Shown piece after piece: positions 10,296-42,362 of a DNA stretch of 63,319 bases. Under the pieces are notes generated by a model. That model did not search any database and was not told where the DNA came from. It saw only the letters and a program-made list of their open reading frames with translations. This DNA is from Ignavibacteria bacterium. GTDB taxonomy: Bacteria; Bacteroidota; Ignavibacteria; Tepidaquicellales; OLB5. The position numbers were made by a program, and so were the translations under genes. The stretch spans positions 1 to 63,319 of the forward strand of contig JANWKI010000133.1 in the NCBI GenBank assembly GCA_025451455.1, written 5' to 3'. Positions within the stretch are counted from its first letter, which is position 1, and every line of letters starts with the position of its first letter.

Positions 10296-10768
10296 CGGGA
10301 TTTCTTAAGAATGCATATCGAATAAGCTGCGCATCCCTGTTTTGTACCTATAAATCCAAGTCCTTCAGATGTAGTTGACTTAATTGAGATATGAGATGAC
10401 TTCATTTTGAGGGTGGAAGCAATATTTTTTTTCATTCTCTCTATAAAGGGAGAAATTTTTGGTTCTTCAAGGACAAGAGTACAATCAATATTCCCGATAC
10501 TAAGCTTTTTTTTCAAAATTAGCTTATTACATTCTGCAAGCAGCACCAGGCTTGAAATATTCTTCCATTTTGCATCGGAGTTCGGGAAATAATGCCCGAT
10601 ATCTCTAAGTCCTGCAGCGCCAAGCAGTGAATCACAAATTGAATGGAGCAAAACATCAGCATCAGAATGTCCTTTTAGTCCCTTTGGGTAAGGAATTATG
10701 ACCCCTCCAAGAATTAGTTTTCTTCCAGTTACAAGTTTGTGAACGTCATAGCCAAATCCAATTCTCAT
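10292..10768 (-). CDS. ispF: 2-C-methyl-D-erythritol 2,4-cyclodiphosphate synthase
   Basis: MRIGFGYDVHKL...GHSDADVLLHSICDSLLGA..., the canonical IspF signature, in a protein of 158 aa. Confidence 0.9.
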   Translation of the reverse strand: MRIGFGYDVHKLVTGRKLILGGVIIPYPKGLKGHSDADVLLHSICDSLLGAAGLRDIGHYFPNSDAKWKNISSLVLLAECNKLILKKKLSIGNIDCTLVLEEPKISPFIERMKKNIASTLKMKSSHISIKSTTSEGLGFIGTKQGCAAYSICILKKSR

Positions 10769-27248: not shown

Positions 27249-29036
27249 ATGATATCCATAATATTAATATTACTTATGTTTCTTCTGGGTGTTAAATCAT
27301 CCACGGGACAAAATTTCCAGGATGAACTCAGGGGAGGGAACCCAAATCCTCAAATGAGGAGATTGTCTTCCTTGAATAATTATGTAAAACTGCCAGACAA
27401 TGAAGGCATTGATAATTATGATAACCCCAATGCAACGACCCGTTATATTCAATCTAATGATGGTTTTCTGTCAGTTGGTCCAAATTTCAGGCTCCACCCG
27501 ACAATTGCCCCCGGAAATCAGAGTGAAGTCATCATTTATGCAAGTCCTTTAAATCCTAATCTGGTATTTGCTGCCGCGGTTGCTTTTTGGGGAGGTTCCG
27601 GTTACCCTGTCGGTGGTTATGCTTCCACTAACGGCGGCATCAATTGGTATGGAACCGATACCTTAAGCATATTGAGTTATGGAGACCCTGGTCCCATAAT
27701 AGATAAGAATAATATATATATTATATCCTATTTACATATTTCGGGGCGAATTGGAACTTCATATTCTACAAATTTCGGGCTTTCTTGGTCTGCCCCCGCC
27801 TATTTACCGGGTTCGTCAACATCTTCTGATAAGTGTTTATCAGGCACAAATTATGCCGCGACTTCACCATATTACGGTCATTCATATACAGTATATACGG
27901 AGTTTGAAGCACCTTATGAAAACAGAATAGTATTTTCGAGAACTACAAATAGCGGAGTTTCCTGGACAACCGTAATACCAATAAGTCCTCCGACTTCACC
28001 TGCACTTCCTGCACATCAGGGAGCTGATGTTACCGCGGGACCTGAAGGTAATATTTATGCTATCTGGGCAAAATACATAGGTTCCTTTCCTAACTATTTG
28101 GAAGATTCTCTGGGTTTTGCAAAGTCAACCGACGGCGGTATCACCTGGACAACGAGAAACAACGCAGCAGATATGAACGGCATCCGTACATTTCAATACG
28201 GACCGTGGCCTATAGGGGTGACAAGCTTTCCGAGAATGGACATTGACCGTACAGGCGGAGAAAGAAATGGCTGGATTTATGTAGTGGCGCCGGAAAAGAA
28301 CTTCAGCAGCGGTGATGTCTCTGACATTTTTTTGTGGAGATCAACCGATCAGGGTACTACTTTCAGCGCTCCTATCAGAGTTAATCAGGACCTGGCAGAC
28401 GGCAAACTGCAGTTTCAAGCGGCAATAAATGTTGACCTCGGAGGCGGAGTAAATGTAATTTATCATGATTGCAGAAGTTCAAATGAGAATGATTCAGTCG
28501 ACACATATGTTTCACGCTCGATTGACGGCGGCAACACATGGACCGATATTAAGGCTAATGATGCGAAATTCAGGCCAAACAATTCAAACGGAAATTGGAT
28601 TGGTGATTACATTGGAATTACATCCACTGACACGAAAATCATTCCAAACTGGGCAGACAATAGAACCGGAAGATATCAGTCCTGGGCAACATTAATTGAT
28701 CTTCCTCCTGTTGGCATACAGAATATTGGTTCGGAAATACCGAAGTACTTTTACTTATCACAAAACTATCCAAATCCGTTTAATCCAACTACGAAAATAA
28801 AATTCGCTATTCCCCCCGGAACATCAGTAGCAGAGACATTCCTGTCTGTGTATGATGTATTAGGTAAAGAAATAGCAGTTCTTGTTAACGAACGCCTCCA
28901 ACCGGGAGCTTACGAAGTTAATTGGGATGCATCAAATTATCCGAGCGGGGTTTATTTTTACAAATTGATAGTCCATCAAACCGGAACTTCGACAGGAGAT
29001 TATTCTGAGATAAAGAAGATGGTTTTGATAAAATAG
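27249..29036 (+). CDS. sialidase-like Asp-box propeller with T9SS CTD
   Basis: Asp-boxes STNGGINW, TTNSGVSW, STDGGITW, STDQGTTF and SIDGGNTW, plus the canonical CTD at the C-terminus. Confidence 0.75.
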   Translation: MISIILILLMFLLGVKSSTGQNFQDELRGGNPNPQMRRLSSLNNYVKLPDNEGIDNYDNPNATTRYIQSNDGFLSVGPNFRLHPTIAPGNQSEVIIYASPLNPNLVFAAAVAFWGGSGYPVGGYASTNGGINWYGTDTLSILSYGDPGPIIDKNNIYIISYLHISGRIGTSYSTNFGLSWSAPAYLPGSSTSSDKCLSGTNYAATSPYYGHSYTVYTEFEAPYENRIVFSRTTNSGVSWTTVIPISPPTSPALPAHQGADVTAGPEGNIYAIWAKYIGSFPNYLEDSLGFAKSTDGGITWTTRNNAADMNGIRTFQYGPWPIGVTSFPRMDIDRTGGERNGWIYVVAPEKNFSSGDVSDIFLWRSTDQGTTFSAPIRVNQDLADGKLQFQAAINVDLGGGVNVIYHDCRSSNENDSVDTYVSRSIDGGNTWTDIKANDAKFRPNNSNGNWIGDYIGITSTDTKIIPNWADNRTGRYQSWATLIDLPPVGIQNIGSEIPKYFYLSQNYPNPFNPTTKIKFAIPPGTSVAETFLSVYDVLGKEIAVLVNERLQPGAYEVNWDASNYPSGVYFYKLIVHQTGTSTGDYSEIKKMVLIK

Positions 29037-29146
29037 AGAGTTTAACCCACGACTGTCGCAGTCTCGAATAGTGAGCGGGACAAATAAAAGGGATCATTAA
29101 AGCCAGTTTTTTTGTATTATATTTAGATAATCCAAAGTAGGATAAA

Positions 29147-31258
29147 ATGTTGAACAAAGAGAATCCATCGCAGGTGAACCGATTTATTTCGGGGAAAAAA
29201 CAGTTATTATTTATTATACTCATCTTGTTTGTAACTATTGTTACTAATGCCCAGTGGCAGCAGGATGTGCGGCTGACAAACAATACTGCTATATCCAATT
29301 TAGTACCGAATAACTCATGGGCTATAAAAGCTAATGGTAATATTTTGCATGTTGTGTGGGCCGATAACCGAAACGGGAGCTACGAGATTTATTACAAGCG
29401 CTCAACTGACGGAGGTATAAGCTGGGGAACAGATACTCGGCTGACCACTAATAATAACATTTTATCTCCCGGTCCTTCTGTAGCAATATCCGGCACGACG
29501 GTACATATTGTATGGTGGGATACCCGTAACGGGGGGGGGATTGAGATTTATTACAAACGCTCTGCTGATGAAGGTGTTAGCTGGGGACCGGAGACACGCC
29601 TGACGAATGCCTTTGGTACTTCTTCGACCCCATCTTTATCAGTATCAGGCTCAGTTGTTCATGTTGTTTGGCAGGATGAACGTGATAGCCAGTTTGCTTT
29701 CGCTGAGATATACTACAAACGCTCAACTGATGGAGGCATTACCTGGGAGCCGGACCGCAGGATGACCAATGATCCGCTGAATTCTTTGAATCCTTCAGTA
29801 GCAGTGAACGGTTCAACAGTACAGATATTATGGCAAGACTTTCGTGACGGGAGCATTAACGGAAATAGTGAGATATATTACAAACGTTCAACAGATGACG
29901 GGTTTAGCTGGGGGCAGGATACCAGACTGACGAATGATTCTTCTATTTCAGAGTTATCTTCAGTTGCGGTATCAGGTTCAACTGTAAGTCTTCTTTGGTC
30001 AGATTTCAGAGATGGAAATTCTGAGATATACTACAAACGCTCAATAAATGACGGTATAAGCTGGGGAACAGATACACGGTTAACAAATGATGGTGGGAAT
30101 TCAAGCTCGGCAAATGTTACTGCATCGGGGTTGTATGTTAATGTTACCTGGAGAGATGACCGCGATGGAAACCAGGAAATATACTACAAACGTTCAACAG
30201 ACGGTGGCAGTAGCTGGGGAGCGGATATACAGTTAACCAATAGTGCCGGAATTTCAGACCGACCTTCAATAGCAGTTTGGGGATCAACTGTGCATGTTGT
30301 CTGGCAGGATATCCGGGACGGAAATTTTGAAATATATTACAAACGTAATCCTTCAGGAAATACGGATACCTTTACTGTTTCAGGACAGGTTACTTACAGA
30401 GATAACGGACTGCCAGTTAACAACGGATTTGTTAAAGCATTACATTATGACAGGATTACCACAAATCTAATCACTGTTGATTCAACTGTCATTTTGCCGG
30501 GTGGTTTTTACACTTTACCCCGAGTGCCTGGTGATACTACATATATTATGTATTATCAAAATGATGATGACCCTCTGGACTTCGTGCCGACATATTATCA
30601 ATCTACTATTGACTGGCAACAGGCAGCTACACTGTACCCAAATGAGAATCTGACAAATATTAACGGTCAGGTTTATAGAATTACTAATTCCGGAGCCAGC
30701 AATTTGCATATAGGCGGAACCTGTTATACACTAAATGATCAGCCCCTGACTGCGCTTGATAATGTTATAATTTATGCAAAGATTGGAAATGAATTTAAGA
30801 ATTACGGCATATCAAACTCAAATGGCTTATACACCGCTCCAATGCTTCCGGCAGGCAGCTATACTTTATATGCTTATCGTATTGGTTATAATTATCTCAC
30901 AAGGTATGAAACAATAACTAATAACAGTCTAGATACGATCAATTTCTATTTCGGCTCACCTATTGGTATCATTAATATAACAACATCTGTCCCTTCGCAG
31001 TATAAATTATCCCAGAATTACCCTAACCCATTCAACCCTGTAACAAAGATAAGATTCGCCTTGCCTAAGAGTTCATTTGCGAAGATCGTCATTTACGATT
31101 TGCTTGGCAGGGAAGTAGAAACGCTTGTCAACGAACAGTTAAATTCCGGAACTTACGAAGTGGATTGGTACGCCTCAAAATATTCGAGCGGTGTCTATTT
31201 CTACAAGCTTGAAACGGAAGGTTTTGTTGAAATTAAGAAGATGGTTTTGATAAAGTAG
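29147..31258 (+). CDS. repeat protein (six full and one partial EIYYKRS.DGG.SWG units), carboxypeptidase-regulatory-like domain and T9SS CTD
   Basis: The Asp-box-containing unit ...V.W.D.RDGN.EIYYKRSTDGGISWG.DTRLTN... recurs every ~47-55 aa. It is followed by an Ig-like segment (FTVSGQVTY...) and the CTD. Confidence 0.75.
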   Translation: MLNKENPSQVNRFISGKKQLLFIILILFVTIVTNAQWQQDVRLTNNTAISNLVPNNSWAIKANGNILHVVWADNRNGSYEIYYKRSTDGGISWGTDTRLTTNNNILSPGPSVAISGTTVHIVWWDTRNGGGIEIYYKRSADEGVSWGPETRLTNAFGTSSTPSLSVSGSVVHVVWQDERDSQFAFAEIYYKRSTDGGITWEPDRRMTNDPLNSLNPSVAVNGSTVQILWQDFRDGSINGNSEIYYKRSTDDGFSWGQDTRLTNDSSISELSSVAVSGSTVSLLWSDFRDGNSEIYYKRSINDGISWGTDTRLTNDGGNSSSANVTASGLYVNVTWRDDRDGNQEIYYKRSTDGGSSWGADIQLTNSAGISDRPSIAVWGSTVHVVWQDIRDGNFEIYYKRNPSGNTDTFTVSGQVTYRDNGLPVNNGFVKALHYDRITTNLITVDSTVILPGGFYTLPRVPGDTTYIMYYQNDDDPLDFVPTYYQSTIDWQQAATLYPNENLTNINGQVYRITNSGASNLHIGGTCYTLNDQPLTALDNVIIYAKIGNEFKNYGISNSNGLYTAPMLPAGSYTLYAYRIGYNYLTRYETITNNSLDTINFYFGSPIGIINITTSVPSQYKLSQNYPNPFNPVTKIRFALPKSSFAKIVIYDLLGREVETLVNEQLNSGTYEVDWYASKYSSGVYFYKLETEGFVEIKKMVLIK

Positions 31259-31308: not shown

Positions 31309-31491
31309 TTATATTTGTTTTTGTGGTATTCCCAACACAATACCTGCAGCTGCACCATAGATTGTGGTTATATACCAGCTTGATGTTAACGGACAGGTTC
31401 CACCGTTCGTGCACCCAACAAAGTAGTAGTATGAGTACCCTGCAATACCTCCAATTAAAATATACAATAACATCTTCAGGTATTTCTTCAT
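31309..31491 (-). CDS. small two-TM membrane protein with a C..GG.CP motif
   Basis: 60 aa, two hydrophobic helices around GCTNGGTCPL. Its start overlaps the upstream gene's stop in ATGA (31488-31491). Same strand and context as DUF2892 and thioredoxin. Confidence 0.55.
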   Translation of the reverse strand: MKKYLKMLLYILIGGIAGYSYYYFVGCTNGGTCPLTSSWYITTIYGAAAGIVLGIPQKQI

Positions 31492-31697
31492 CCTATTTTA
31501 TTCCTAAGCGTGCCTATGCCAAAAGGCAGGTAAAGCGGACATGTTCCTACTAAGGATGTTAATACAAAAATTATTGCAATAGCAGAAAGTATTATTCCCA
31601 ATAATCCCGGAATAATACCAGTAAAATATAGTGTAAATATTATAAGAGCTAGTATAACTCTTATGATCTTATCAGTAGAACCCATATTCTTTTTCAT
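31488..31697 (-). CDS. DUF2892 (YgaP-type) membrane protein
   Basis: MKKNMGSTDKIIRVILALIIF...LTSLVGTCPLYLPFGIGT matches the DUF2892 pattern (N.G..DR..R...G ... G.CP.Y..FG). Confidence 0.7.
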   Translation of the reverse strand: MKKNMGSTDKIIRVILALIIFTLYFTGIIPGLLGIILSAIAIIFVLTSLVGTCPLYLPFGIGTLRNKIG

Positions 31698-31711: not shown

Positions 31712-32173
31712 TTAGTTTGCTTTCACAAGCAGTATTTCGTTAATTGCCTGCACAAAACCTTCCTTAGGCATTGCACCGCTTGACATCTGCGGTTTCCCGT
31801 CCATCGGAATGAATAAGATAGAAGGAATACTTCTTATTCCGAAGATTGAAGCAAGTTCCTGCTCTTTTTCCGTATCCACTTTATAGATCTGGATCTTACC
31901 GTCGTATTCCTTTGAAAGATCTTCGAGAACCGGGGCAACCATTTTACAGGGACCGCACCAGTCTGCATAGAAATCAATTATTACCGGCTTATCACCTTCG
32001 AACTTCCAGTCCGTATTTGTTTCGTAATTGAATACTTTTTCTTTAAATGTGGCTGCGTTTAAATGTACCATAGTTGTGTTTTTTACCTCGTTGTTTTCTT
32101 TTTTACTGCAGCCCTGGCCCGCAAGAGCCGTTAGTACCGCAGAAATGATTAATAATGTTTTAATTGTTTTCAT
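31712..32173 (-). CDS. exported thioredoxin
   Basis: Signal/lipoprotein-like N-terminus and the WCGPC active site (IIDFYADWCGPCKMVAP). Confidence 0.85.
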   Translation of the reverse strand: MKTIKTLLIISAVLTALAGQGCSKKENNEVKNTTMVHLNAATFKEKVFNYETNTDWKFEGDKPVIIDFYADWCGPCKMVAPVLEDLSKEYDGKIQIYKVDTEKEQELASIFGIRSIPSILFIPMDGKPQMSSGAMPKEGFVQAINEILLVKAN

Positions 32174-32201: not shown

Positions 32202-32218
32202 AGTTGCTACTAGCAACT
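32202..32218. promoter_or_regulatory. Operator O1: perfect palindrome AGTTGCTA-C-TAGCAACT
   Basis: Read directly. Lies 29 nt upstream of the thioredoxin ATG in the divergent 367-nt intergenic region. Confidence 0.6.
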
Positions 32219-32253
32219 TATATAAATGATTCTGAAAAGTCAAGAGATGAAAA

Positions 32254-32270
32254 AGGTGCCATTAGCAACC
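32254..32270. promoter_or_regulatory. Operator O2: AGGTGCCA-T-TAGCAACC (imperfect copy)
   Basis: The right half-site core TAGCAAC is intact (the final base is C rather than T). The left half matches 6 of 8 positions. Confidence 0.45.
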
Positions 32271-32346
32271 AATGATATAAATCATGTTTTCCTTTGATAT
32301 AGGACATTTTTTATCTCAGCCATGCCTGTTATTTTAGTATCAAGAA

Positions 32347-32363
32347 AGTTGCTATTAGCGACT
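32347..32363. promoter_or_regulatory. Operator O3: AGTTGCTA-T-TAGCGACT (one mismatch)
   Basis: Read directly. Lies ~180 nt upstream of the octaheme cytochrome gene. Confidence 0.55.
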
Positions 32364-32540
32364 AATTACTGCAAATTCTTTAAAAATCAACAATAAATCG
32401 AAATATATGAAAATCAAAATACTAGTATTCTCTCTATTATTCTCGCTTACTTCTCCAATATAATAATGAAAAAATGCTGCAGTAGGATATGTTGGGAAGA
32501 ATTTGTTATTTATTCATAAAAAACGCGCAGTGAATTAAAT

Positions 32541-33977
32541 ATGAAATATAAAAAGTCTGTTTATTACATGCTCCGCAACATTGGAATAGCACTGATGATG
32601 GTAGTTGTTATGAATTCATGCAACAAAGAATCCGGCACCACTAAGAATACTGCGCCGGCTCCGCAAAATCCCCTGGAAGGACGTGTGCTTCCGCACCTGG
32701 ATCACAGCCCTTATTTCAAAGACTCTATTGAATCTCCCCAGACTGTTACCCGTATGTGTATAAATTGTCATCCCAATAGCGCAAAGGAAGTAATGAAAAC
32801 TGCGCATTGGACATGGATAAGCGGTGATGTTGTGAGAAATGGTAAAGTAATGCCGCTAGGCAAAAAAAATCAGATAAACAACTTCTGCATCAGCATTGTC
32901 GGCAACTGGGCTTCCTGTACAACATGTCACGCAGGTTACGGCTGGGGGGATGAGAATTTCGACTTTTCAAAAGAAGAAAACGTCGATTGTTTGGTATGTC
33001 ACGATGGTTCAGGCACATATGTGAAAACAAAAAGCGGTATGCCTAATAAAAGCGTTAACCTGCGTTTAGTTGCTGGAAGTGTACACCGTCCGGGCAGAGA
33101 GAACTGCGGAATTTGCCATTTTAGCGGCGGCGGAGGTATGGGAGTAAAACACGGCGATCTGGATGAATCACTGATAAATGCAAACCAGGAGCTTGATTTC
33201 CATATGGGCAAACTCAATTTTCAGTGTGTTGATTGCCACACGACTAAAGATCATGTTATTTCAGGTAAAGTAAATACTACTTACACTGAAAAAACCACTG
33301 CAGTGAGATTTAATTGTGAGAATTGTCATACTGAAAAGCCTCATAAAGACCGCCGGCTCAATGAGCACACTGCCAGAATAGCTTGTCAAACATGCCATAT
33401 ACCTGAGTTTGCAAGAAAGCTTCCTACAAAAATGATCTGGGACTGGTCAAAAGCAGGGGATTCAACCAGAATAGACAGTCCGCATGAATACTTAAAAATA
33501 AAGGGTGAATTCAAGTATGAAGAGGAAGTTATTCCAACTTATGCCTGGTTTAACGGAAAAATGGACAGATACGTAATTGGTGATAAACTTGATTCAGAAA
33601 CTGAACACAATATCAATCACCCGATAGGTTCACGTGATGACGAGAAAGCAAAAATATGGCCGTTCAAAGTACATCATGCCATACAGCCCTATGACGAAAT
33701 AAATAACATTCTTATACCTCCGATAACCAGCGGAGAGGGCGGTTACTGGACGAAGTTTGACTGGAGTTACGCAATAGCAACAGGAGCAAAACTAAACAAT
33801 TTACCATACAGCGGAAAGTTTGGTTTTAGTCCAACAAAAATGTACTGGCCCATTACACATATGGTTACAACAAGTAAAAATGCTCTTTCATGTACAGATT
33901 GTCATTCATCCGGAGGTCGTTTGAACTGGAAGGAATTGGGTTATAAAAATGATCCGGTTCAGGGTCCCGGTAAATAA
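32541..33977 (+). CDS. octaheme c-type cytochrome, tetrathionate-reductase (Otr)-like
   Basis: Signal anchor plus eight CXXCH motifs (CINCH, CTTCH, CLVCH, CGICH, CVDCH, CENCH, CQTCH, CTDCH) in 478 aa. The Otr-family assignment rests on size and heme count, and is tentative. Confidence 0.65.
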   Translation: MKYKKSVYYMLRNIGIALMMVVVMNSCNKESGTTKNTAPAPQNPLEGRVLPHLDHSPYFKDSIESPQTVTRMCINCHPNSAKEVMKTAHWTWISGDVVRNGKVMPLGKKNQINNFCISIVGNWASCTTCHAGYGWGDENFDFSKEENVDCLVCHDGSGTYVKTKSGMPNKSVNLRLVAGSVHRPGRENCGICHFSGGGGMGVKHGDLDESLINANQELDFHMGKLNFQCVDCHTTKDHVISGKVNTTYTEKTTAVRFNCENCHTEKPHKDRRLNEHTARIACQTCHIPEFARKLPTKMIWDWSKAGDSTRIDSPHEYLKIKGEFKYEEEVIPTYAWFNGKMDRYVIGDKLDSETEHNINHPIGSRDDEKAKIWPFKVHHAIQPYDEINNILIPPITSGEGGYWTKFDWSYAIATGAKLNNLPYSGKFGFSPTKMYWPITHMVTTSKNALSCTDCHSSGGRLNWKELGYKNDPVQGPGK

Positions 33978-33998
33978 ACACATTAATAGTAAAGTCAA

Positions 33999-34526
33999 AT
34001 GAAAAAAATAGCAAAGCCCGTTAAAAATCCATACTTCGCCGGTTCCATTCTTGGAGTGGTTCTCTTCAGTGCTTATGCTTTAACTCACAGCGGGTTAGGC
34101 GCATCAGGCGCAATTAGCCGCATTCATGTTGCGCTTACCAAGTTGTTATGGCAATCACATGTTGATGTTATCAGTACTTTTGCTGTGATGGGTGCAGGAG
34201 ATACCAATCCATTGGATCATGCCAGTGTATTTCTTTTGATTGGCACATTTGCAGGTGGAATGATCTCAGCATGGTTTAACGGCAGATTAAAAGTTGAAAT
34301 ATTAAAAGGTCCGCAAATTTCGAATGTACAGCGGCTCATTTTTGCTCTGCTAGGAGGATTAATTATGGGCTACGGTGCCAGGTTTGCACGCGGATGTACT
34401 TCAGGTCAGGCATTATCAGGCGGGGCAGTTCTTTCGCTGGGGAGCTGGGCATTTATGTTCAGTGTTTTTACCGGAGGTTATGCAGTTGCTTATTTTGTTC
34501 GCCGTCTCTGGGCTGGATCAAATTAA
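33999..34526 (+). CDS. YeeE/YedE-family sulfur-compound transporter component (half-size)
   Basis: Four to five TM segments and the conserved GCTSGQALSG motif. Confidence 0.7.
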   Translation: MKKIAKPVKNPYFAGSILGVVLFSAYALTHSGLGASGAISRIHVALTKLLWQSHVDVISTFAVMGAGDTNPLDHASVFLLIGTFAGGMISAWFNGRLKVEILKGPQISNVQRLIFALLGGLIMGYGARFARGCTSGQALSGGAVLSLGSWAFMFSVFTGGYAVAYFVRRLWAGSN

Positions 34527-34563
34527 ACCAGTTTCTTTTTATCAATAAGAAAATTAATCTATT

Positions 34564-35760
34564 ATGTTACCTATAGATGTTATTGCAGTTCTTGGAAAAT
34601 TCGGCGGATATGCAGTTTTTGTTCTGATCGGTATCGGTTTTGGAGTTTCACTGGAATTGGCAGGTTTTGGAGATTCAAGAAGACTTGCCGCGCAGTTCTA
34701 TTTAAAAGATATGACAGTTTTAAAAACAATGTTTACCGGCATTGTGGTTGCCGCTCTTTTAATTTTTCTTTCAGCTGCCTTTGGGATACTTGATTTTGCT
34801 CAAATATCCGTGACTCAAACATTCTTATGGCCGGGAATTATTGGCGGACTTATAATGGGTGTTGGATTTATAGTTGGCGGCTATTGCCCGGGTACTTCAC
34901 TGGTTTCAGTAGCAAGCCTAAAAATTGATGGTCTCTTCTTTTTAATTGGCACTATTCTGGGTGCCGGATTTTTTGGCGAATCACTGCCGGCTTTTGAAGA
35001 TTTCTGGAATTCTTCATTTACCGATAGGTACTTGGTTTCTGACTGGCTGGGCTGGTCTATTGGTGCTACTTTATTCGCTGTAACGCTTATGGCATTAGTG
35101 ATGTTCTATGGTGCGGAAAAAGTTGAAGAGTTTTTCAGAACGAAAGGAACAGGAAAAGTATGGTCATGGAAGATCACAAGGCGTTCATATCTTTATGGCG
35201 CTGCTGCTTTGGTCTTTACAGCTTCTCTGGTATGGTTAATCGGACAGCCTGATCCTGTTCGTAAATGGAATTTAATGGAAAACCGCTATTCAGCTCAGCT
35301 TTCTTCACGGGATGTTTTCATTCACCCGCTGGAGTATGTAAAAACATATAATGAGGCTTCGATCAAACTTGTAACTCTCGATATTCGTTCAGAAAATGAA
35401 TTCAAAAATTTCCATCTCACCGGCTCTGAAAATGTTAAACCGGAAAATTTTCTGGATCCAAAGTTTGTCGCACCGCTTTCGCATCTTCCGTCTCAGGGTG
35501 TAGTGATCTTGATAGCAGATAATGATTCTGTTTCTGTTCAGGCATGGAAATACCTGAAAGTTCAGGGAGTAAACAACGTTTACATACTTGAAAATGGGTT
35601 AAATGACTGGAATAAACTTTTCGAAGGCAAAACTATTTCAGGAAAATCTTTCAATGTAGCTTCTCCGCCTTCTGAGGTACTTGGGTTGTTTCCCAAAGAT
35701 GTTTTTACACCGAAAATAAAAATAAGTAACAAAAAACGCTCCGGGGGACTTTGCAGCTAA
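34564..35760 (+). CDS. YeeE/YedE-family membrane domain fused to a C-terminal rhodanese-homology domain that lacks the catalytic Cys
   Basis: YeeE motif GGYCPGTS. The C-terminal ~110 aa is rhodanese-like (LVTLDIRSENEFKNFHLTGSENV ... VVILIADNDSVSVQAWKYL ... LENGLNDW). The active-site loop reads IADNDS where active rhodaneses carry Cys. Confidence 0.7.
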   Translation: MLPIDVIAVLGKFGGYAVFVLIGIGFGVSLELAGFGDSRRLAAQFYLKDMTVLKTMFTGIVVAALLIFLSAAFGILDFAQISVTQTFLWPGIIGGLIMGVGFIVGGYCPGTSLVSVASLKIDGLFFLIGTILGAGFFGESLPAFEDFWNSSFTDRYLVSDWLGWSIGATLFAVTLMALVMFYGAEKVEEFFRTKGTGKVWSWKITRRSYLYGAAALVFTASLVWLIGQPDPVRKWNLMENRYSAQLSSRDVFIHPLEYVKTYNEASIKLVTLDIRSENEFKNFHLTGSENVKPENFLDPKFVAPLSHLPSQGVVILIADNDSVSVQAWKYLKVQGVNNVYILENGLNDWNKLFEGKTISGKSFNVASPPSEVLGLFPKDVFTPKIKISNKKRSGGLCS

Positions 35761-35783
35761 ATCCAAATAAAATATTTGATTGT

Positions 35784-37682
35784 ATGAAATTATTATTGAC
35801 AGCATTTAAAGTATTGATCTATTTGCTGATCATTGGATTATCAGCATCACATGCACTTGCGCAAACATCTACAATCTCAGCTTTAAATAACACGGAGTGC
35901 TTGAAATGCCATGATAAAAATATTTCTGCCAATACCTATAATTCTTCTGTTCATAAATCATTAACATGTACAGCCTGCCACATTCAGGATGGTGAAAATG
36001 CCCTAAGCAAACTGAAAACGAAAAAAAATTCCTGTATTGTCTCTTACAAGCCAATGAACTGCGGCAGCTGTCATAACTCGATTTCAAAAGAACACGAAAC
36101 AAGCATTCATAACTCCACACGGCTTCCTGTATCATGCTCCAAATGCCACGCGAATATCCATACGATCACCTCGATCAAAAATGATAAGAAAGCTGCCGCA
36201 AAGCTGTGTAGCGTGTGTCACGAAAAAGAATCCTCATATTTTAAATCAATTCATTTCCAGGCACTGGAAAAAGGAAATAACGATGCTCCATCCTGCACTG
36301 ATTGTCATAATAAGCATGCAATTAACAAGATTGATAACGTTTCTGAGGGAAGGATATTCCATACCCAGGCCTGCATGAAGTGTCATGCCGATACAAGTTT
36401 GATGCTTCGCAATAAGGTTACAACTATTGCGGCAAAGTCTTATTTTGAAAGTTACCATGGTAAGAACATACGGTTGGGGTATCCTGAAAATGTTGCAGGC
36501 TGCTCTGATTGCCACAGCGCTCATAATATACTTCCGGAAAAAGATACAAACTCAATGGTAAACTCAGCTAATTTAACCAATACCTGCAAGCAATGTCATG
36601 CTGATGCAGGTATTGGATTTTCCAAATTTATAGCTCATGCTGAACCCAACAATCAAAGCAAGTATCCGGCGCTTTTCTGGGTGACAGTTTTTATGAACGC
36701 ACTGCTGGCAGGAACATTCCTATTCTTCTGGATACATTCAATCCTCTGGACTTTCAGGGGCTTTATTGAAAAGAAACATAACCGAGATGCTGAAAATTTT
36801 TCAGGAACTGAACATAACCCCAAGAATAATCTAAAAATTAAAAACAAAGTGTACAGGCGTTTCAGGCCGTTACATATAGTGCTGCACGTTTTTGTTGTAA
36901 CCAGTTTTCTTGCACTTGCTTTGACCGGTCTTCCATTAAAATTTAACTATACTTCATGGGGAAAAACATTAATGGACTTCCTGGGCGGTATCGGAAGCGC
37001 AGGTTTGATCCATCGTATTGCAGCTATAATTACCTTTGGATATTTTTTAGTAACTCTTGTGATGAGTATACGCTTTCTGTTCTCTAAAAAACATTCAAAG
37101 GAAACCTTTTTCAAAAGGCTGTTAGGCCCCGATTCACTTTTCATAAACCGAAAAGATCTGCGGGATATAATGGCTATGTTCCGCTGGTTCTTGTTCCGGG
37201 GTACTAAGCCGGCATTTGACAGGTGGACTTACTGGGAGAAGTTTGACTTCTTAGCAGTTTTCTGGGGAGTTGCAATTATAGGATCAAGCGGGTTAATACT
37301 CTGGCTCCCCGAGTTTTTTGGATACTTTCTGCCCGGCTGGATATTCAATATGGCAACTATAATACATTCAGACGAGGCTCTTTTGGCTGTAGGATTCATC
37401 TTCACTGTTCACTTTTTTAACACGCATTTACGAGCTGAAAAATTTCCTATGGACTTTGTCATTTTCAACGGTCAGGTTACTGAGGAAGAGATGATACACG
37501 AACGCGGCGAACAGTGGGATCGATATCAAAAGCAGGGAATAACAAGCAACTTTGAGGTTAAGAAACCCGGTTCTTTAGTATGGGAAATTGTATTACGTTT
37601 ATTTGGCTTAGCGGCTTTACTTACAGGTTCAATTCTGGCACTGTTTATACTTTATTCAATAATTAGTATAGGGGGGCATTAA
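35784..37682 (+). CDS. nine-heme c-type cytochrome fused to a b-type (HydC/FdnI-like) membrane cytochrome domain; CbcL-like quinol oxidoreductase
   Basis: Signal peptide and nine CXXCH motifs (CLKCH, CTACH, CGSCH, CSKCH, CSVCH, CTDCH, CMKCH, CSDCH, CKQCH). These are followed by ~5 TM helices with conserved His (HIVLHVF, IHRIAAI, IIHSDEALLAVGFIFTVHFFNTH). The ATG at 35784 is preferred over 35751. Confidence 0.7.
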   Translation: MKLLLTAFKVLIYLLIIGLSASHALAQTSTISALNNTECLKCHDKNISANTYNSSVHKSLTCTACHIQDGENALSKLKTKKNSCIVSYKPMNCGSCHNSISKEHETSIHNSTRLPVSCSKCHANIHTITSIKNDKKAAAKLCSVCHEKESSYFKSIHFQALEKGNNDAPSCTDCHNKHAINKIDNVSEGRIFHTQACMKCHADTSLMLRNKVTTIAAKSYFESYHGKNIRLGYPENVAGCSDCHSAHNILPEKDTNSMVNSANLTNTCKQCHADAGIGFSKFIAHAEPNNQSKYPALFWVTVFMNALLAGTFLFFWIHSILWTFRGFIEKKHNRDAENFSGTEHNPKNNLKIKNKVYRRFRPLHIVLHVFVVTSFLALALTGLPLKFNYTSWGKTLMDFLGGIGSAGLIHRIAAIITFGYFLVTLVMSIRFLFSKKHSKETFFKRLLGPDSLFINRKDLRDIMAMFRWFLFRGTKPAFDRWTYWEKFDFLAVFWGVAIIGSSGLILWLPEFFGYFLPGWIFNMATIIHSDEALLAVGFIFTVHFFNTHLRAEKFPMDFVIFNGQVTEEEMIHERGEQWDRYQKQGITSNFEVKKPGSLVWEIVLRLFGLAALLTGSILALFILYSIISIGGH

Positions 37683-37800
37683 AACAAATATTAGATTATT
37701 TTCATGAATTAGTTTGCCGGAAACCTGAAAACCTCTGTAGGCCGAAAGTAAGAACAGAAGAATTGCAGCAAATTATTGAAAGTTTAAACAATTTTCATTA

Positions 37801-37817
37801 AGTTGCGTCTAGCAACT
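37801..37817. promoter_or_regulatory. Operator O4: AGTTGCGT-C-TAGCAACT
   Basis: Right half perfect, left half with 2 mismatches. Lies immediately upstream of the MarR gene, consistent with autoregulation. Confidence 0.5.
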
Positions 37818-37827
37818 ATAAAACAAT

Positions 37828-38250
37828 ATGCCGGTGAATAGATCGATAGTAGAACTTATTTTTGAGCTTAAATTTGCCTGTATGTCCAAAGAGGAAAGCA
37901 TCAGGGAAAAACTGGATATTTCGCCTGCCGAATACAGGGGAATACTCTCCCTACGGCCTGGTAAGATAGTATCCTGTATGCAGCTTTCAAATACCATGGG
38001 TCTTTCAAAATCACGAGGCAGCAGGGTTGTGGATAAGCTTATTGCAAACGGTTATTTGAAAGAGGCAAAAAAAGTAGATGATAAGCGTGTATTTAATGTA
38101 ATGCTTACAAAAGCAGGCGAAAAAGCCTTGAAGGAAATAAACGTGCTTATGAAGGAATGTGAAACAGCAATTCTTAAAAATGTACCTAAATCGGAGCTAA
38201 AATCATTTACCCACACGCTTCATAAGATATCAGAAATAGTAAAACCATAG
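37828..38250 (+). CDS. MarR-family transcriptional regulator (OhrR-like context)
   Basis: Winged helix (MQLSNTMGLSKSRGSRVVDKLIANGYLKEAKKVDDKRVFNVMLTKAGEKAL). An alternative ATG lies at 37882. Followed by an OsmC/Ohr-family gene. Confidence 0.75.
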   Translation: MPVNRSIVELIFELKFACMSKEESIREKLDISPAEYRGILSLRPGKIVSCMQLSNTMGLSKSRGSRVVDKLIANGYLKEAKKVDDKRVFNVMLTKAGEKALKEINVLMKECETAILKNVPKSELKSFTHTLHKISEIVKP

Positions 38251-38285
38251 CAAATTGAATCAAACTTGCAGAGTTGTCCAATGCT

Positions 38286-38312
38286 AATTTAGTTGCTATT
38301 AGCAACTAAATT
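38286..38312. promoter_or_regulatory. Operator O5: 27-nt perfect palindrome AATTTAGTTGCTA-T-TAGCAACTAAATT
   Basis: Read directly. Lies between the MarR stop (38250) and the OsmC start (38381). The core is identical to the O1 half-sites. Confidence 0.65.
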
Positions 38313-38380
38313 GACTATATTTGTGGAGTAGCTTTGAGATTCAAATTTGAAGTATATTTAACAGAAAGAAGAATTAAACA

Positions 38381-38791
38381 ATGAAAATGGAAATATTTTT
38401 CGATGAAGGTAAGAAAGTTAATGCCATCTACAACGGCCATGTGATAAAAACCGACCAGCCTGTTGAAGCAAGCGGAAATGGATCATCACCTGCACCTTTT
38501 GACCTGTTCCTTGCGTCTATTGGGACTTGTGCAGGCATTTACGTAAAATCCTTTTGTATGCAGCGTCAAATACCAACTGATGATATAAGGATAATTCAAT
38601 CAATGAGTTATGACAATGACAGAGGGTTAGTTGGAAAGATCAAACTTGAGATCATGCTTCCTCCGGATTTCCCTGCAAAATACAAAAGTGCAGTTATCAA
38701 TGCAGCAAATCTTTGCGCTGTAAAGAAACATCTGATTAACCCGCCTGAAATTGAAGTGGAAGCAAAAGAAATAAGTGTTATACCTGTGTGA
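38381..38791 (+). CDS. OsmC/Ohr-family peroxiredoxin-like protein
   Basis: 136 aa with the OsmC pattern (GNGSSPAPFDLFLASIGTCAGIY ... ANLCAVKKHL) and two conserved Cys. Confidence 0.7.
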   Translation: MKMEIFFDEGKKVNAIYNGHVIKTDQPVEASGNGSSPAPFDLFLASIGTCAGIYVKSFCMQRQIPTDDIRIIQSMSYDNDRGLVGKIKLEIMLPPDFPAKYKSAVINAANLCAVKKHLINPPEIEVEAKEISVIPV

Positions 38792-39129: not shown

Positions 39130-41190
39130 ATGAAACGCAAAATGAAATCAATATTTTTTACAATTCTTGCATGTATTTTAACAGTTCAGGTTTCCAATTC
39201 GCAATGGGTTTATACTAACGGGCCATATGGGGCGACAGTTCAGGCACTTATTTCCAAGAGCGGCAATATGTTTGCAGCTACTCAGGGAGGCGGAATATAT
39301 ATTACAACAAATAATGGTGTGAACTGGACAGCCTCAAATTCAGGGCTCAGTGCAACAAACATTTATTCACTTGCTGTTTTGGGAAATAATCTTTTTGCAG
39401 GTGCGTTTGGAGGGTGCTTTATATCAACAAATAACGGGGCTAACTGGACTGCCGTAAATTCCGGTTTGACCGCGAGCGATGTTCACGCATTAGCAGTAAG
39501 TGGGACTAATTTGTTTGCCGGGACGTACTCCGGGGTATTTTTCTCAACTAATAACGGCTCGAACTGGTCTCAAATAAATAACGGATTGACTACAACTATT
39601 GTCCAGTCTCTGGCAGTAATCGGGACAAACATATTTGCCGGAACGTTTGGCGGCGGAGTATTTTTGACTACCAACAATGGTGGAAACTGGACGGAGGTTA
39701 ATAACGGTCTTGGAAGTGTCTACATATCCTGTTTACTTGTTAGCGGAACAAATCTTTTTGCAGGCGGGGGAGGGGCCTTCTTCTCATCAGATAACGGAAC
39801 GAGCTGGACAACTATCAATAACGGTCTTACCAATACTAACGTTTTATCTATGGGTGTAAACAACAATTATATTTTTGCCGGGACTTCTGGCTCAGGAGTC
39901 TTTGCGACTACTAATAACGGCCAGCAATGGCTTCCTGCTAATTCGGGTATGAGCGGTGCGACTGTTTCCTCACTCGGAGTATCGGGTTCGAATGTTTTTG
40001 CAGGAACACAGGGTGGAGCATATATTTCCGTAAACAACGGAACTAACTGGACTTCTGTAAGTAATGGAATGCGTTACCTGCTGTGCCAGGGTATATTTTC
40101 TTTTTCAAATAATTTATATTGTGCAACGTGGGGCAGCGGTGTTGCTGTTTCAACTGATAATGGCTCAAGCTGGTTTAATTCAAACAATGGAGTTACCAGT
40201 GCAATTGTTTCTTCATTTGCTTCGATTGGAAGTAATTTATTTGCCGGAACACAGGGAGGAGTATTTAGATCATCCGACAATGGTTTTAACTGGAGTGCAT
40301 CCAGCTCTGGGTTAACAGATCTGCAGGTATTTACTCTCGCGGTTAATAATTCAAATCTATATGCAGGGGCAGGAAGCGGAGTTTTTTATTCAACTAATTC
40401 AGGTTCATCATGGACGAAGATCAGCACAGGACTCCCGCTATTACCTGTATATGCTTTAGCATTTATAGGGAATAATATTTTTGCCGGGCTCTGGTCCGGA
40501 GGTGTGTATTCTTCAACAAATAACGGGCAATCGTGGGTATCAGCAAGCTCGGGGTTGACAAATAATATTGTAATAACACTTGCCGTTAATGGAACAGATC
40601 TTTATGCAGGAACTACAGCCGGATTATTTAAGTCTACAAATTCAGGTAACAGCTGGAATACTGCCAATAACGGGCTTGGAGTTACTTATATATTGTATAT
40701 TTATTCATATAATTCATATTTATTTGCAGGAACCTGGAATGGCGGTGTTTATTTTTCGTCAAATGGGGGAGCTAACTGGATTAACGTAAGTACCGGTCTT
40801 TCAAACTTAGATGACAGGGCTCTGACAGTTCATAATTCCAATCTGTTTGTTGCCGCTGTGGGCGGAGTCTGGAAACGTCCATTAAGTGATATCCTTTCCG
40901 TACAGCAAACTTCAAATACAATACCTGATGAATTTAAATTAGAGCAGAACTATCCTAACCCATTTAACCCAAGCACAAAAATACAATTTGCATTGCCGAA
41001 GAGCTCTTTTGCAAAGCTGGTCGTTTACGATGCGCTTGGCAGGGAAGTGGAAATATTAGTTAATGAACAATTAAATGCAGGCACTTCCGAAGCGGATTGG
41101 TCAGCGGATAAGTTTTCCAGCGGGGTGTATTATTATAAGCTCACAGCAGGGGATTACACGGTAACAAGGAAAATGGTTTTGATGAAATGA
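39130..41190 (+). CDS. large tandem-blade Asp-box-like beta-propeller protein with T9SS CTD
   Basis: About 13 blades (SLAV.G.NLFAGT..GGVF.STNNG.NWT..NNGL). CTD: NYPNPFNPSTKIQFALP...VYDALGREVEILVNEQLNAGT...SGVYYYKL...RKMVLMK. Confidence 0.8.
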   Translation: MKRKMKSIFFTILACILTVQVSNSQWVYTNGPYGATVQALISKSGNMFAATQGGGIYITTNNGVNWTASNSGLSATNIYSLAVLGNNLFAGAFGGCFISTNNGANWTAVNSGLTASDVHALAVSGTNLFAGTYSGVFFSTNNGSNWSQINNGLTTTIVQSLAVIGTNIFAGTFGGGVFLTTNNGGNWTEVNNGLGSVYISCLLVSGTNLFAGGGGAFFSSDNGTSWTTINNGLTNTNVLSMGVNNNYIFAGTSGSGVFATTNNGQQWLPANSGMSGATVSSLGVSGSNVFAGTQGGAYISVNNGTNWTSVSNGMRYLLCQGIFSFSNNLYCATWGSGVAVSTDNGSSWFNSNNGVTSAIVSSFASIGSNLFAGTQGGVFRSSDNGFNWSASSSGLTDLQVFTLAVNNSNLYAGAGSGVFYSTNSGSSWTKISTGLPLLPVYALAFIGNNIFAGLWSGGVYSSTNNGQSWVSASSGLTNNIVITLAVNGTDLYAGTTAGLFKSTNSGNSWNTANNGLGVTYILYIYSYNSYLFAGTWNGGVYFSSNGGANWINVSTGLSNLDDRALTVHNSNLFVAAVGGVWKRPLSDILSVQQTSNTIPDEFKLEQNYPNPFNPSTKIQFALPKSSFAKLVVYDALGREVEILVNEQLNAGTSEADWSADKFSSGVYYYKLTAGDYTVTRKMVLMK

Positions 41191-42362
41191 AAAAGTTCGT
41201 TTTAATATTGTTGTTTGTTTCCGTTGTGTCGTATGCAGACTGGGAAGTACTACCCAACGGTATAGGTTATATTACTGTATATTCATTAGCGAATGGTGGA
41301 AACAATATCTTTGCCGGAACTTATTTTGGAGTGTATAAATCTACAAATAATGGAGACGAATGGTTTCAAACTCCATTAAATAATCCATATACTGTTTACA
41401 CATTACTAGTAAACGGAAATTACGTATTTGCAGGAACGGGTTCTCCAGCTAACGGAGTATTTGTATCAACGAATTTAGGATCAAATTGGACGCAAACTCC
41501 TTTAAACAATAGGACTGTTAATGCATTAACCATAAGTGGAAATAAAATCTTTGCAGGTACATTAGATTATGGAGTATATATTTCTTCTAATAATGGAGCA
41601 ACTTGGACCCAAAGTTCTTTAAATAATCTATGGATTACAGCACTGGTTGCAAATGGAAGTAATATATTTGCTGCTACAGGAGGCAACGGATTATATTTAT
41701 CTACAAATAGCGGGTCGAATTGGACTCAGACTTCTTTTAATTTTAATTTTGTTTGGGCTTTAGGAATAAACGGAAATAATTTATATGCTGGCGTTATTAG
41801 TGGATTATATTATTCTACTAATAATGGAACAAATTGGGTTCAAACTACTTTAAGTTATGAGCCTTCAAGTTTAGTATTTAACGGTAACAATATTTTTGTG
41901 AGCGCTGGGCAAAATGGCGTTTATGTTTCAAACGATAATGGTCTTACTTGGGCGCCAAGGAACGAAGGTATTTCAGGTTTAACAATAAATGAACTAAGTA
42001 TTCATAATAATTATCTTTTTGCAGGAACTAATAATAGAGTTTACAGAAGACCACTAAGTGAACTTATAGGTATCCACCCAATATTCACAGAAATCCCGAA
42101 TCAATTTTCTCTTTCGCAAAACTATCCGAACCCGTTTAACCCGGCAACAAAGATAAGGTTTGCTTTGCCAAAGAGTTCGTTTGCAACAATTGTTGTTTAC
42201 GATGCGCTCGGCAGGGAATTGGAAATGCTTGTCAACGAACAATTAACTGCAGGCACTTACGAAGCGGATTGGAATGCAGACAGGTTTTCAAGCGGGGTAT
42301 ATTATTATAAACTTATTGCAGGGGATTTTACCGAAACGAAGAAGATGGTTTTAGTGAAGTGA
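41187..42362 (+). CDS. tandem-blade beta-propeller protein with T9SS CTD (paralog of 25954..27171)
   Basis: Start overlaps the upstream stop (ATGA). Blades follow the pattern L.VNGNN.FAGT..GVY.STN.GSNWTQT.LNN. Canonical CTD. Confidence 0.8.
   Translation: MKKFVLILLFVSVVSYADWEVLPNGIGYITVYSLANGGNNIFAGTYFGVYKSTNNGDEWFQTPLNNPYTVYTLLVNGNYVFAGTGSPANGVFVSTNLGSNWTQTPLNNRTVNALTISGNKIFAGTLDYGVYISSNNGATWTQSSLNNLWITALVANGSNIFAATGGNGLYLSTNSGSNWTQTSFNFNFVWALGINGNNLYAGVISGLYYSTNNGTNWVQTTLSYEPSSLVFNGNNIFVSAGQNGVYVSNDNGLTWAPRNEGISGLTINELSIHNNYLFAGTNNRVYRRPLSELIGIHPIFTEIPNQFSLSQNYPNPFNPATKIRFALPKSSFATIVVYDALGRELEMLVNEQLTAGTYEADWNADRFSSGVYYYKLIAGDFTETKKMVLVK
42090..42362 (+). repeat. CTD-encoding cassette, copy 1 (pairs with 43425..43697)
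   Basis: My hand alignment gives roughly 17 mismatches and no indels over 273 nt, including an 88-nt run (42268-42355 vs 43603-43690) with no difference. The upstream propeller parts of the two genes are not alignable. Confidence 0.75.

Follow-up and report, generated by a model that had tools for sequence, protein, structure and literature searches.

What is the role of a 17-bp palindrome that recurs beside a thioredoxin gene, an octahaem cytochrome operon, a marR gene and an osmC gene, and if it is an operator, which protein reads it and to what signal does that protein respond? The question arises from 63,319 nucleotides (nt) of an Ignavibacteria bacterium (assembly GCA_025451455.1, contig JANWKI010000133.1, forward strand; G+C content 38%), the whole of which is called the window here. 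An earlier note on this DNA had proposed that five copies of the palindrome bind the adjacent MarR protein and unite the thioredoxin (trx) unit, the operon of an octahaem tetrathionate-reductase-family cytochrome c (OTR) and a YeeE-type transporter, marR itself and osmC in one regulon. Our comparative analysis bears this proposal out: to judge from sequence, the palindrome has the properties of an operator for the adjacent MarR protein and links all four units, and the five copies are very probably binding sites of this neighbouring MarR-type repressor.

Results

Five palindromes and their distribution among genomes

The palindrome AGTTGCTANTAGCAACT, which has the half-site structure AGTTGCTA-N-TAGCAACT over 17 bp, matched the window exactly five times when up to three mismatches were allowed. 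All five matches (O1 to O5; Table 1) lie in the intergenic regions to which they had been assigned, and there is no other copy in the window. Dinucleotide shuffling gave an expectation of 0.19 matches, and none of the 100 shuffles, which contained one match at most, reached five. A weight matrix built only from the sites of other genomes gave the window sites 19.5-31.1 bits and the next best position in the window 9.7 bits. O2 is marginal by score (19.5 bits, in a test in which one of 50 shuffles reached 22.5) and we accept it because a middle site recurs at the same inter-operator position in four of six other lineages (present in L005, L009, L012 and L016, absent from L001 and L008; related loci are cited by number). 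The trx-proximal site is kept in 16 loci, and the A-to-G variant seen in O3 occurs at the same position in L005, L007, L008, L009 and L016. The extension of O5 to 27 nt agrees with our scan, which returned a longer perfect palindrome with 13-bp arms at 38285-38313.

An exact-match scan of 185,579 species genomes (one per species, 596 Gb) yielded 99 stretches, against about 139 expected under uniform base composition (596e9/4^16). Ignavibacteria contributed 22 copies in 18 genomes: 19 of these are at trx, fadL-otr, marR or osmC, two are at mfd and one is on a truncated contig. Four of the genomes have a second exact copy, and there both copies belong to this locus. The palindrome is thus no dispersed repeat, and an origin by chance or as a generic repeat is ruled out by the shuffle counts, the weight-matrix scores and the genome scan. 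The two mfd copies, in two Ignavibacteria metagenome-assembled genomes (MAGs), are exact and lie 70-85 nt upstream of a Pfam-confirmed gene for the transcription-repair coupling factor (L044 5646-5662; L071 7612-7628); mfd may be an additional member of the regulon in some lineages.

Homologues of the window MarR come from Ignavibacteria or metagenome contigs. We chose six independent Ignavibacteria contigs by MarR homology alone (66-80% identity, about 20 kb each). The loci retrieved in this way share the gene order of the window, and the motif proved to be conserved in their orthologous intergenic regions, with matches of three mismatches or fewer at the equivalent places and none elsewhere in about 20 kb each. 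Rearranged loci serve as natural experiments in which the sites stay with the genes. In L003, marR and osmC are far from any OTR operon and both retain their sites; L007 is without the trx unit and still has a site in front of fadL-otr; in L040 and L060 marR adjoins the trx promoter region, divergent from trx in the former and followed by osmC in the latter. The called osmC of L007 (10431-10910, 159 amino acids) contains the operator (10457-10473); its start is probably mis-called, given the conserved start MKMEIFF further downstream.

The palindrome travels with the MarR subfamily across phyla. In other lineages the exact palindrome adjoins MarR relatives of 28-43% identity, and it lies within tens of bp of a subfamily marR gene in two Spirochaetota loci (L015 and L020, Spirochaetales), one of Bacteroidota (L023), one of Planctomycetota (L027, Phycisphaerales) and one of Acidobacteriota (L038). 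The two Spirochaetales MAGs have the palindrome, marR, a gene for an S-adenosylmethionine (SAM)-dependent methyltransferase (Methyltransf_31) and a radical-SAM gene (L015 193-2813; L020 719-3342), the Phycisphaerales MAG has the site, marR and a DUF6132-thioredoxin fusion, and the Acidobacteriota MAG has the site, trx and marR. Four further Ignavibacteria and one Bacteroidetes MAG combine the site, trx and a marR paralogue with a second, overlapping half-conserved site. Ignavibacteria, Bacteroidetes and Acidobacteriota all keep this tandem operator, a perfect site followed immediately by an overlapping half-conserved …AGCAACTATTTCTATTGGCAACT… (L011 1712-1744, L023 74-106, L028, L033, L034, L038 and L088), where trx and a marR paralogue are arranged in this way. 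A distant sister clade of MarR proteins has the motif VYQFRDRDRICCHD (ICC motif), the recognition helix LDKSTTSRV and, in three of four cases, a Cys-rich C-terminal CC tail. Its genes directly adjoin exact copies of the palindrome in Gemmatimonadota, Acidobacteriota and Thermoanaerobaculia (L062 6168, L090 1940, L086 6170, L101 2047), so this operator type is shared beyond the two-Cys subfamily described below.

As a control we selected 60 metagenome loci by protein patterns only, of which 54 had at least 60 nt of upstream sequence. A site with three mismatches or fewer lies within 150 nt of marR in 42 of the 54, most of the remainder have a four-mismatch site at the same place, and the only sites of three mismatches or fewer beyond 150 nt of marR are trx-proximal ones. 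The core of the operator throughout the family is TTGCTAnTA(G/A)CAA. In a clade at 45-52% identity (L120, L125, L129, L132 and the P0046 locus) marR is followed by genes for Pyr_redox_2, DUF1641, DsrC and DsrE2, an operon of sulfur-relay type; the operator there is the variant AGTTGCTAnTAnCAAnn, 11-32 nt before marR, as read in the four numbered loci, the equivalent P0046 locus (52% identity) having contributed its gene list.

A distinct MarR subfamily with a conserved cysteine pair

The window MarR scores just under the Pfam cut-offs (25.9 versus 27 for MarR_2; 21.2 versus 24.6 for MarR). Its homology to the MarR family (PF01047 / PF12802) is evident from the many homologues that carry Pfam matches and from profile matches to 97 MarR chains in the PDB (best E=2.4e-12). 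The AlphaFold2 model (predicted local distance difference test score 90.6) has the topology α1-α2-α3-α4-wing-α5-α6, that of a six-helix winged helix-turn-helix protein whose dimerisation domain consists of α1, α5 and α6, and Foldseek matched it to many MarR structures with a probability of 1.00 and TM-scores of up to 0.78. The window protein has a MarR fold and is only a generic sequence relative of the characterised members. It belongs to a compact subfamily of 514 clusters at 50% identity (E<=1e-10), among 19,710 MarR-like matches, which by sequence is distinct within MarR and is unnamed. The subfamily members that carry names are all from uncultured organisms, and none of the named subfamily matches returned by the profile search is from Bacteroides or a cultured organism.

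The recognition helix reads LSKSRGSRV (residues 59-67; predicted helix α4 spans 61-73), and within the pattern LSxSRxSR(V/I) residues S62, R63 and R66 are invariant in all 150 cluster representatives; these invariant residues match the invariant operator core. Two cysteines are conserved in every phylum sampled, Cys18 (139 of 144 representatives) and Cys111 (139 of 147), and 130 of 141 full-length representatives have both (about 92%). In the model Cys18 is half-way along α1 and Cys111 is part of α5, two helices of the predicted dimerisation domain. Like the 2-Cys thiol-switch MarR sensors, the protein has a conserved cysteine pair.

Putative operators lie over predicted promoters

Our promoter predictions use the Chlorobaculum/Bacteroidetes consensus TTG-N17-23-TAnnTTTG. 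A preprint on Chlorobaculum tepidum, of the sister group of Ignavibacteria, reports an RpoD motif closely similar to the Bacteroidetes consensus TTG-N17-23-TAnnTTTG. As is usual for operators of the MarR family, the palindrome overlaps the predicted promoters of marR and the adjacent genes: each site overlaps a core element of a predicted promoter of Bacteroidetes/Chlorobi type, TTG-N20-TAnnTTTG, which is the geometry of a repressor. The osmC operator takes up the predicted -33 element and the spacer, those of trx and marR overlap the -7 element, and that of otr covers the predicted start site; O3 would lie around the otr transcription start because it is 9 nt downstream of the predicted -7 box.

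Comparison of the intergenic regions showed that the flanks have diverged freely and that the operator and the adjoining promoter element are kept in nearly all the loci compared. On the trx side, 15 of 16 loci have TTGAC, a gap that places TTG 20 nt from TA, and then TA+AGTTGC; the TTGAC is at a fixed distance from the operator in these Ignavibacteria and Bacteroidota loci and the Acidobacteriota locus L038 differs. On the osmC side all 15 loci have the operator, 8 nt and then TAT(A/T)TTTG, with unrelated upstream flanks. Across the fadL/otr loci a TAnnTTTG box is found 3-11 nt upstream of the site at the O3 position. Among 15 marR loci, most contain the block aTTGAAA..TAAAcAATT..TTAAGTTGC, and 14 have a degenerate AGTTGCGnnTAACAACA 8-13 nt before the marR start, mostly behind TTG-N20-TA; the fifteenth, L040, has a three-mismatch site just upstream instead. 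The weaker character of the marR-proximal site fits autoregulation.

A further block, GGACATTTTTTATC(G/T)C (window 32302-32317), precedes the -7 box of otr/fadL by about 13-20 nt in most related loci. It is not a TTG -33 element; a second factor may bind there, or the block may serve as a variant -33/UP element.

Genes of the locus

The gene assignments of the earlier note were correct, model matches fitting the trx unit, the OTR operon, MarR and OsmC (Table 1). The first gene of the unit trx / YgaP-like transmembrane (TM) protein / DUF6132 encodes a thioredoxin that is probably exported, to judge from its signal peptide; the latter two genes, read as co-transcribed with trx, together span 31309-31697, and the trio recurs in L001, L008, L009 and L016. 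The score and the eight haem-binding motifs of the OTR protein place it in the TIGR04315 family at the level of sequence. The YeeE open reading frames (ORFs), of 175 and 398 amino acids with the rhodanese domain fused to the second, are two half-size ORFs and not the single full-length polypeptide of YeeE/TsuA, and they score far below the TsuA and YedE NCBIfam cut-offs; by sequence they are family-level relatives of YeeE/TsuA in a split, rhodanese-fused form. The last gene of the operon encodes a fusion of a multihaem cytochrome with a cytochrome b-like domain, whose Ni_hydr_CYTB match is weak (21.8 bits, below the cut-off); a separate Ni_hydr_CYTB gene occupies the equivalent place in L001. 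This fusion protein is probably the quinol-side electron donor to OTR.

Between the divergent promoter region and otr, most related loci carry fadL. The window has at 32407-32463 an 18-codon stub, MKIKILVFSLLFSLTSPI*, that resembles the signal peptide of a FadL/Toluene_X outer-membrane channel. Because 157 nt here replace about 1.5 kb of L016, fadL seems to have been deleted in the window lineage, leaving otr directly behind the O3 promoter. At marR, the starts of homologous proteins (MNKS/MDKS) align with codon GTG 37834; ATG 37828 is two codons upstream and 10 nt past O4, and with either start codon the leader is very short. Several genes flank the regulon (27249-31258 and 39130-42362) whose large secreted products contain repeats and finish with the sorting motif of type IX secretion, …QNYPNPFNP…; this motif fits an origin in Ignavibacteria or the FCB group.

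Table 1. Proposed operators, predicted promoter elements and genes of the proposed regulon in the window
Feature	Coordinates	Strand	Remarks
Operator O1	32202..32218		0 mismatches; overlaps the -7-like box of the predicted trx promoter; 29 nt upstream of trx ATG
Operator O2	32254..32270		3 mismatches; weak middle operator; 11 nt upstream of trx -33 TTGAC
Operator O3	32347..32363		1 mismatch (AGCGACT variant); the otr/fadL -7 box ends 9 nt upstream
Operator O4	37801..37817		2 mismatches; 10 nt before ATG 37828; overlaps the -7-like box TAAGTTGC; putative autoregulatory marR operator
Operator O5	38286..38312		Perfect core 38291-38307 in a 27-nt palindrome; left half gives the predicted osmC -33 TTG
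Predicted trx promoter	32213..32243	-	TTG(AC) 32243-32239, 20-nt spacer, TAAGTTGC 32220-32213
Predicted otr (ancestrally fadL-otr) -7 box	32330..32337	+	TATTTTAG in the window; TAnnTTTG in relatives
Predicted marR promoter	37776..37806	+	TTG 37776-37778, 20-nt spacer, TAAGTTGC 37799-37806
Predicted osmC promoter	38293..38323	+	TTG 38293-38295 inside O5, 20-nt spacer, TATATTTG 38316-38323
DUF6132 protein	31309..31491	-	PF19628; small, Cys-containing, membrane
YgaP-like TM protein (DUF2892)	31488..31697	-	PF11127; small, Cys-containing, membrane
Thioredoxin (trx)	31712..32173	-	TIGR01068 111.6 bits, PF00085; signal peptide and lipobox-like Cys
OTR, octahaem tetrathionate-reductase-family cytochrome c	32541..33977	+	TIGR04315 556 bits (cut-off 375); 8 CXXCH
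Split YeeE/YedE-type sulfur transporter	33999..35760	+	PF04143 on both ORFs; PF00581 on the second
Multihaem cytochrome c fused to membrane cytochrome b-like domain	35751..37682	+	Multihaem Pfam/NCBIfam matches
MarR-subfamily repressor gene	37828..38250	+	140 amino acids; Cys18 (α1), Cys50 (α3), Cys111 (α5)
OsmC-family gene	38381..38791	+	PF02566 53.1 bits; 136 amino acids; two family-typical Cys

Discussion

What we computed is the sites and their conservation, how they overlap predicted promoters, the co-occurrence of regulator and site in several phyla and the conservation of the cysteines; from this we infer that the protein binds DNA and represses, what signal it answers and how its cysteines react. 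We consider it likely that the MarR protein encoded at 37828-38250 represses four transcription units through five operators and is released by a thiol-based mechanism. A MarR dimer would bind each operator and, once bound, would exclude RNA polymerase from the sigma-A promoters, holding the four units off together. Of these, one is trx / YgaP-TM / DUF6132, another is otr / yeeE / yeeE-rhodanese / multihaem-cytochrome b, the third is osmC and the last is the marR gene, which would be controlled through a site that is deliberately weaker. Release would most likely occur when a sulfur compound oxidises or bridges Cys18 and Cys111 and the affinity for DNA falls, the candidate inducers being a persulfide or polysulfide (sulfane sulfur), tetrathionate or general disulfide stress. 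Derepression would yield a thioredoxin for export, a thiol protein of the OsmC type, an octahaem reductase of the periplasm together with the donor on its quinol side, and an importer/sulfurtransferase of YeeE-rhodanese type, and these products would form a single response to sulfur compounds and thiol redox state.

Genes that adjoin subfamily members elsewhere encode thioredoxin, DUF6132 and YgaP-TM proteins, OsmC, YeeE-rhodanese, OTR, Pyr_redox_2-DUF1641-DsrC-DsrE2 operons and TPMT/TehB/ArsM-like methyltransferases, and what they share, as read from their sequences, is thiol, persulfide and chalcogen chemistry. The earlier note had described the coupling of a respiratory module to thiol protection as unusual. 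The shared regulon stands; the coupling need not be seen as unusual, and is more simply understood as one sulfur-compound and thiol-redox regulon because other subfamily members adjoin Trx, DUF6132, YeeE-rhodanese, Pyr_redox_2-DsrC-DsrE2 and SAM methyltransferases. A covalent thiol switch is the most economical mechanism because of the conserved cysteine pair and this thiol/sulfur neighbourhood, and the neighbouring genes suggest that the protein senses reactive sulfur species or thiol oxidants through thiols and is not a peroxide sensor. A more specific proposal, that this multi-phylum subfamily of about 500 clusters is a dedicated two-Cys sensor of reactive sulfur species or tetrathionate with the near-invariant operator TTGCTAnTAGCAA, and that it recruited the OTR operon in Ignavibacteria, is put forward tentatively, and on balance we are inclined to doubt it a little more than to believe it.

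Several observations weigh against repression through all five sites and release through the cysteine pair. O2 is weak and two lineages are without it; the OTR-linked relatives L136 and L167 have no recognisable site; Cys50 is conserved in part of the family only, and a few family members are without one of the two conserved cysteines. The transcription starts are consensus predictions only, and in the window the otr promoter has no clear -33 TTG and a mismatched -7 box. A simple sigma-70 consensus scan gave 20 matches against 22.5 expected, which is no enrichment and what another promoter type would lead one to expect; the scan is uninformative here.

The nature of the signal can be read in two other ways. 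The earlier note had recognised in marR and its osmC neighbour the classical OhrR-Ohr arrangement, in which MarR would sense organic hydroperoxides through an N-terminal cysteine and control an OsmC-like peroxidase, with the other operons as passengers. The adjacency to a gene of the OsmC/Ohr superfamily is real, a conserved cysteine lies in α1, one source names the homologue P0042 an 'organic hydroperoxide resistance regulator', and peroxide and sulfane-sulfur sensing overlap in known MarR proteins. The identification with OhrR fails, however, on its own model: the score for NCBIfam NF052638 is 17.6 bits against a cut-off of 200, and OhrR structures are absent among the 60 PDB sequence matches listed of 97. 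In OhrR the peroxide-reactive cysteine (Cys15 in B. subtilis, Cys22 in X. campestris) is found close to the N-terminal end of α1. Our hhalign comparison with B. subtilis OhrR (probability 76%) covers residues 24-135 only and does not reach the N-terminal Cys region; extrapolated from its start at residue 24, it would set OhrR Cys15 near residue 8, about 10 residues N-terminal of Cys18. Nor is the neighbour an Ohr protein. It matches PF02566 (OsmC) and no Ohr model, its PDB matches are of OsmC type and its closest NCBIfam models are TIGR03549 (OsmC/YcaO) and NF041052, the nearest relative being the OsmC domain of OsmC/YcaO fusions; moreover, the partners most widely shared by the subfamily are thioredoxin and other sulfur genes, not osmC. 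OhrR-style peroxide sensing is possible, is without specific support here and seems to us unlikely. Gating by a ligand, in which a non-covalent small molecule (thiosulfate, an organic sulfur compound or an aromatic) releases the repressor and the cysteines are structural or line a pocket, would agree with the closest structurally characterised MarR proteins, which are mostly ligand binders (the Variovorax indole-3-acetic acid/benzoate MarR, HpaR and E. coli MarR), and with the FadL-type channel for hydrophobic compounds that adjoins some relatives. We think it distinctly improbable given the conservation of two cysteines in about 92% of representatives across phyla and the uniformly thiol/sulfur-redox neighbourhoods, which fit covalent thiol sensing better.

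Two further alternatives concern the palindrome itself. It might be bound by a different regulator encoded elsewhere, the adjacent MarR being unrelated to it; only 63 kb of this genome is visible, and in some Ignavibacteria the same palindrome precedes a trx-marR operon that encodes a MarR paralogue (37-43% identity), with which the sites could be shared. Against such a regulator, the site is found together with the subfamily gene in five or more further phyla and among the loci selected by protein, a site of autoregulatory type precedes the marR ATG in nearly every locus compared (at 8-13 nt in 14 of 15 and just upstream in the fifteenth), the recognition helix is invariant and the 63-kb window holds no second member of the subfamily; we give this alternative very little credence. 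Still less credible, and close to negligible, is the view that the palindromes work at the level of RNA, as hairpins that terminate, attenuate or stabilise transcripts, and not as protein-binding DNA. For O5 the predicted fold is indeed a 13-bp hairpin (-15 kcal/mol), flagged as terminator-like after marR, O1 is flagged likewise, and O3 would be transcribed within the otr leader. It is the sequence that is conserved, however, and not just the pairing, since substitutions are single and uncompensated; the predicted starts of trx, marR and osmC are downstream of their sites, the stems are of 7 bp, A/U-rich and have z-scores of only -1.1 to -3.4, and the same sequence precedes marR genes in unrelated phyla. 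Binding by the neighbouring MarR protein is the reading that we retain.

To our knowledge, the physiological substrate of OTR has been uncertain since its discovery. Control of OTR in common with thioredoxin, OsmC and YeeE-rhodanese argues for a sulfur/thiol-linked role of OTR and suggests which inducers to try. If the subfamily is such a sensor of reactive sulfur species or tetrathionate and recruited the OTR operon, this would provide the first regulatory evidence for a physiological role of OTR in the reduction of sulfur compounds, coupled to uptake and sulfur transfer by YeeE-rhodanese and to an exported thioredoxin. The locus also supplies a regulator and operator whose pairing has a clean definition from comparative genomics; they come from phyla, Ignavibacteriota among them, with almost no characterised transcription factors. 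It further documents predicted TTG-N20-TAnnTTTG promoters with built-in operators in Ignavibacteria. Repression by MarR proteins with cysteine-based sensing is already well known and the present system is an extension of it, not a surprise; the added interest lies in an operator/recognition-helix pair that is conserved across phyla and in the tie between OTR and sulfur/thiol-redox control. A literature search for the motif string returned only a resemblance to CbaR, and no published study of this repressor-site pair was found in it. The operator of CbaR, a MarR-type repressor, is AAGTTGCTAAACCAACAACA and resembles the marR-proximal variant AGTTGCGnnTAACAACA (PMC4132709); the likeness is probably coincidental, arising from the common preference of MarR proteins for GTTG/CAAC half-sites.

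Among known systems, OhrR-Ohr resembles the window in having marR next to a gene of the OsmC/Ohr superfamily and an operator before that gene. It is unlike the window system in the regulator, which fails the OhrR model here and, by extrapolation of the alignment, probably has its cysteine away from the OhrR position, in the partner, which is of OsmC type here, and in the operator, the window palindrome being unrelated to the AT-rich OhrR box. In B. subtilis that box is TACAATT-AATTGTA. The TtrSR system of Salmonella consists of a histidine kinase and a response regulator that activates a molybdoenzyme for tetrathionate respiration. In both systems the presence of tetrathionate would be coupled to expression of a tetrathionate reductase; the window system is, by prediction, a one-component repressor that controls an octahaem cytochrome. 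SqrR, BigR and YgaV of the ArsR family and CstR of the CsoR family are, as the window MarR is predicted to be, two-Cys repressors of sulfur-detoxification genes; their targets include rhodaneses, YeeE/TauE-type transporters and YgaP-type proteins, and derepression follows from di- to tetrasulfide bridging. Their folds and operators are different, the scaffold in the window being that of MarR.

Sensing of sulfane sulfur and oxidants by cysteines of MarR proteins is established (review PMC11211675), and the 2-Cys thiol-switch members X. campestris OhrR, P. aeruginosa MexR and B. subtilis HypR/YodB, several of which sense sulfane sulfur (PMC11211675), offer the closest mechanistic parallels. They share with the window system, as predicted from its sequence, a homodimeric winged-helix repressor, a palindromic operator over promoters, autoregulation, cysteines in the helices of the dimer interface and a thiol-protective regulon. 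The window subfamily is unlike them in its LSxSRxSR helix, in the position of its cysteines (mid-α1 and α5), in its putative operator TTGCTAnTAGCAA and in a predicted regulon that includes an octahaem cytochrome operon and a YeeE-rhodanese transporter. Deletion of bmoR in Bacteroides fragilis derepresses a thiosulfate:quinone oxidoreductase, the exported thioredoxin TrxP and a disulfide reductase with fused rhodanese, TusA and DsrE parts (PMC6158253). BmoR is autoregulated, its binding to the trxP operon was not detected, and its reported inverted repeat contains TTTCC, not TTGCTA (PMC6158253). By description, BmoR and the window regulator are both MarR-type repressors from the same superphylum with a theme of thiols, thiosulfate and tetrathionate, and by this analogy BmoR is the nearest characterised functional counterpart of the system described here.

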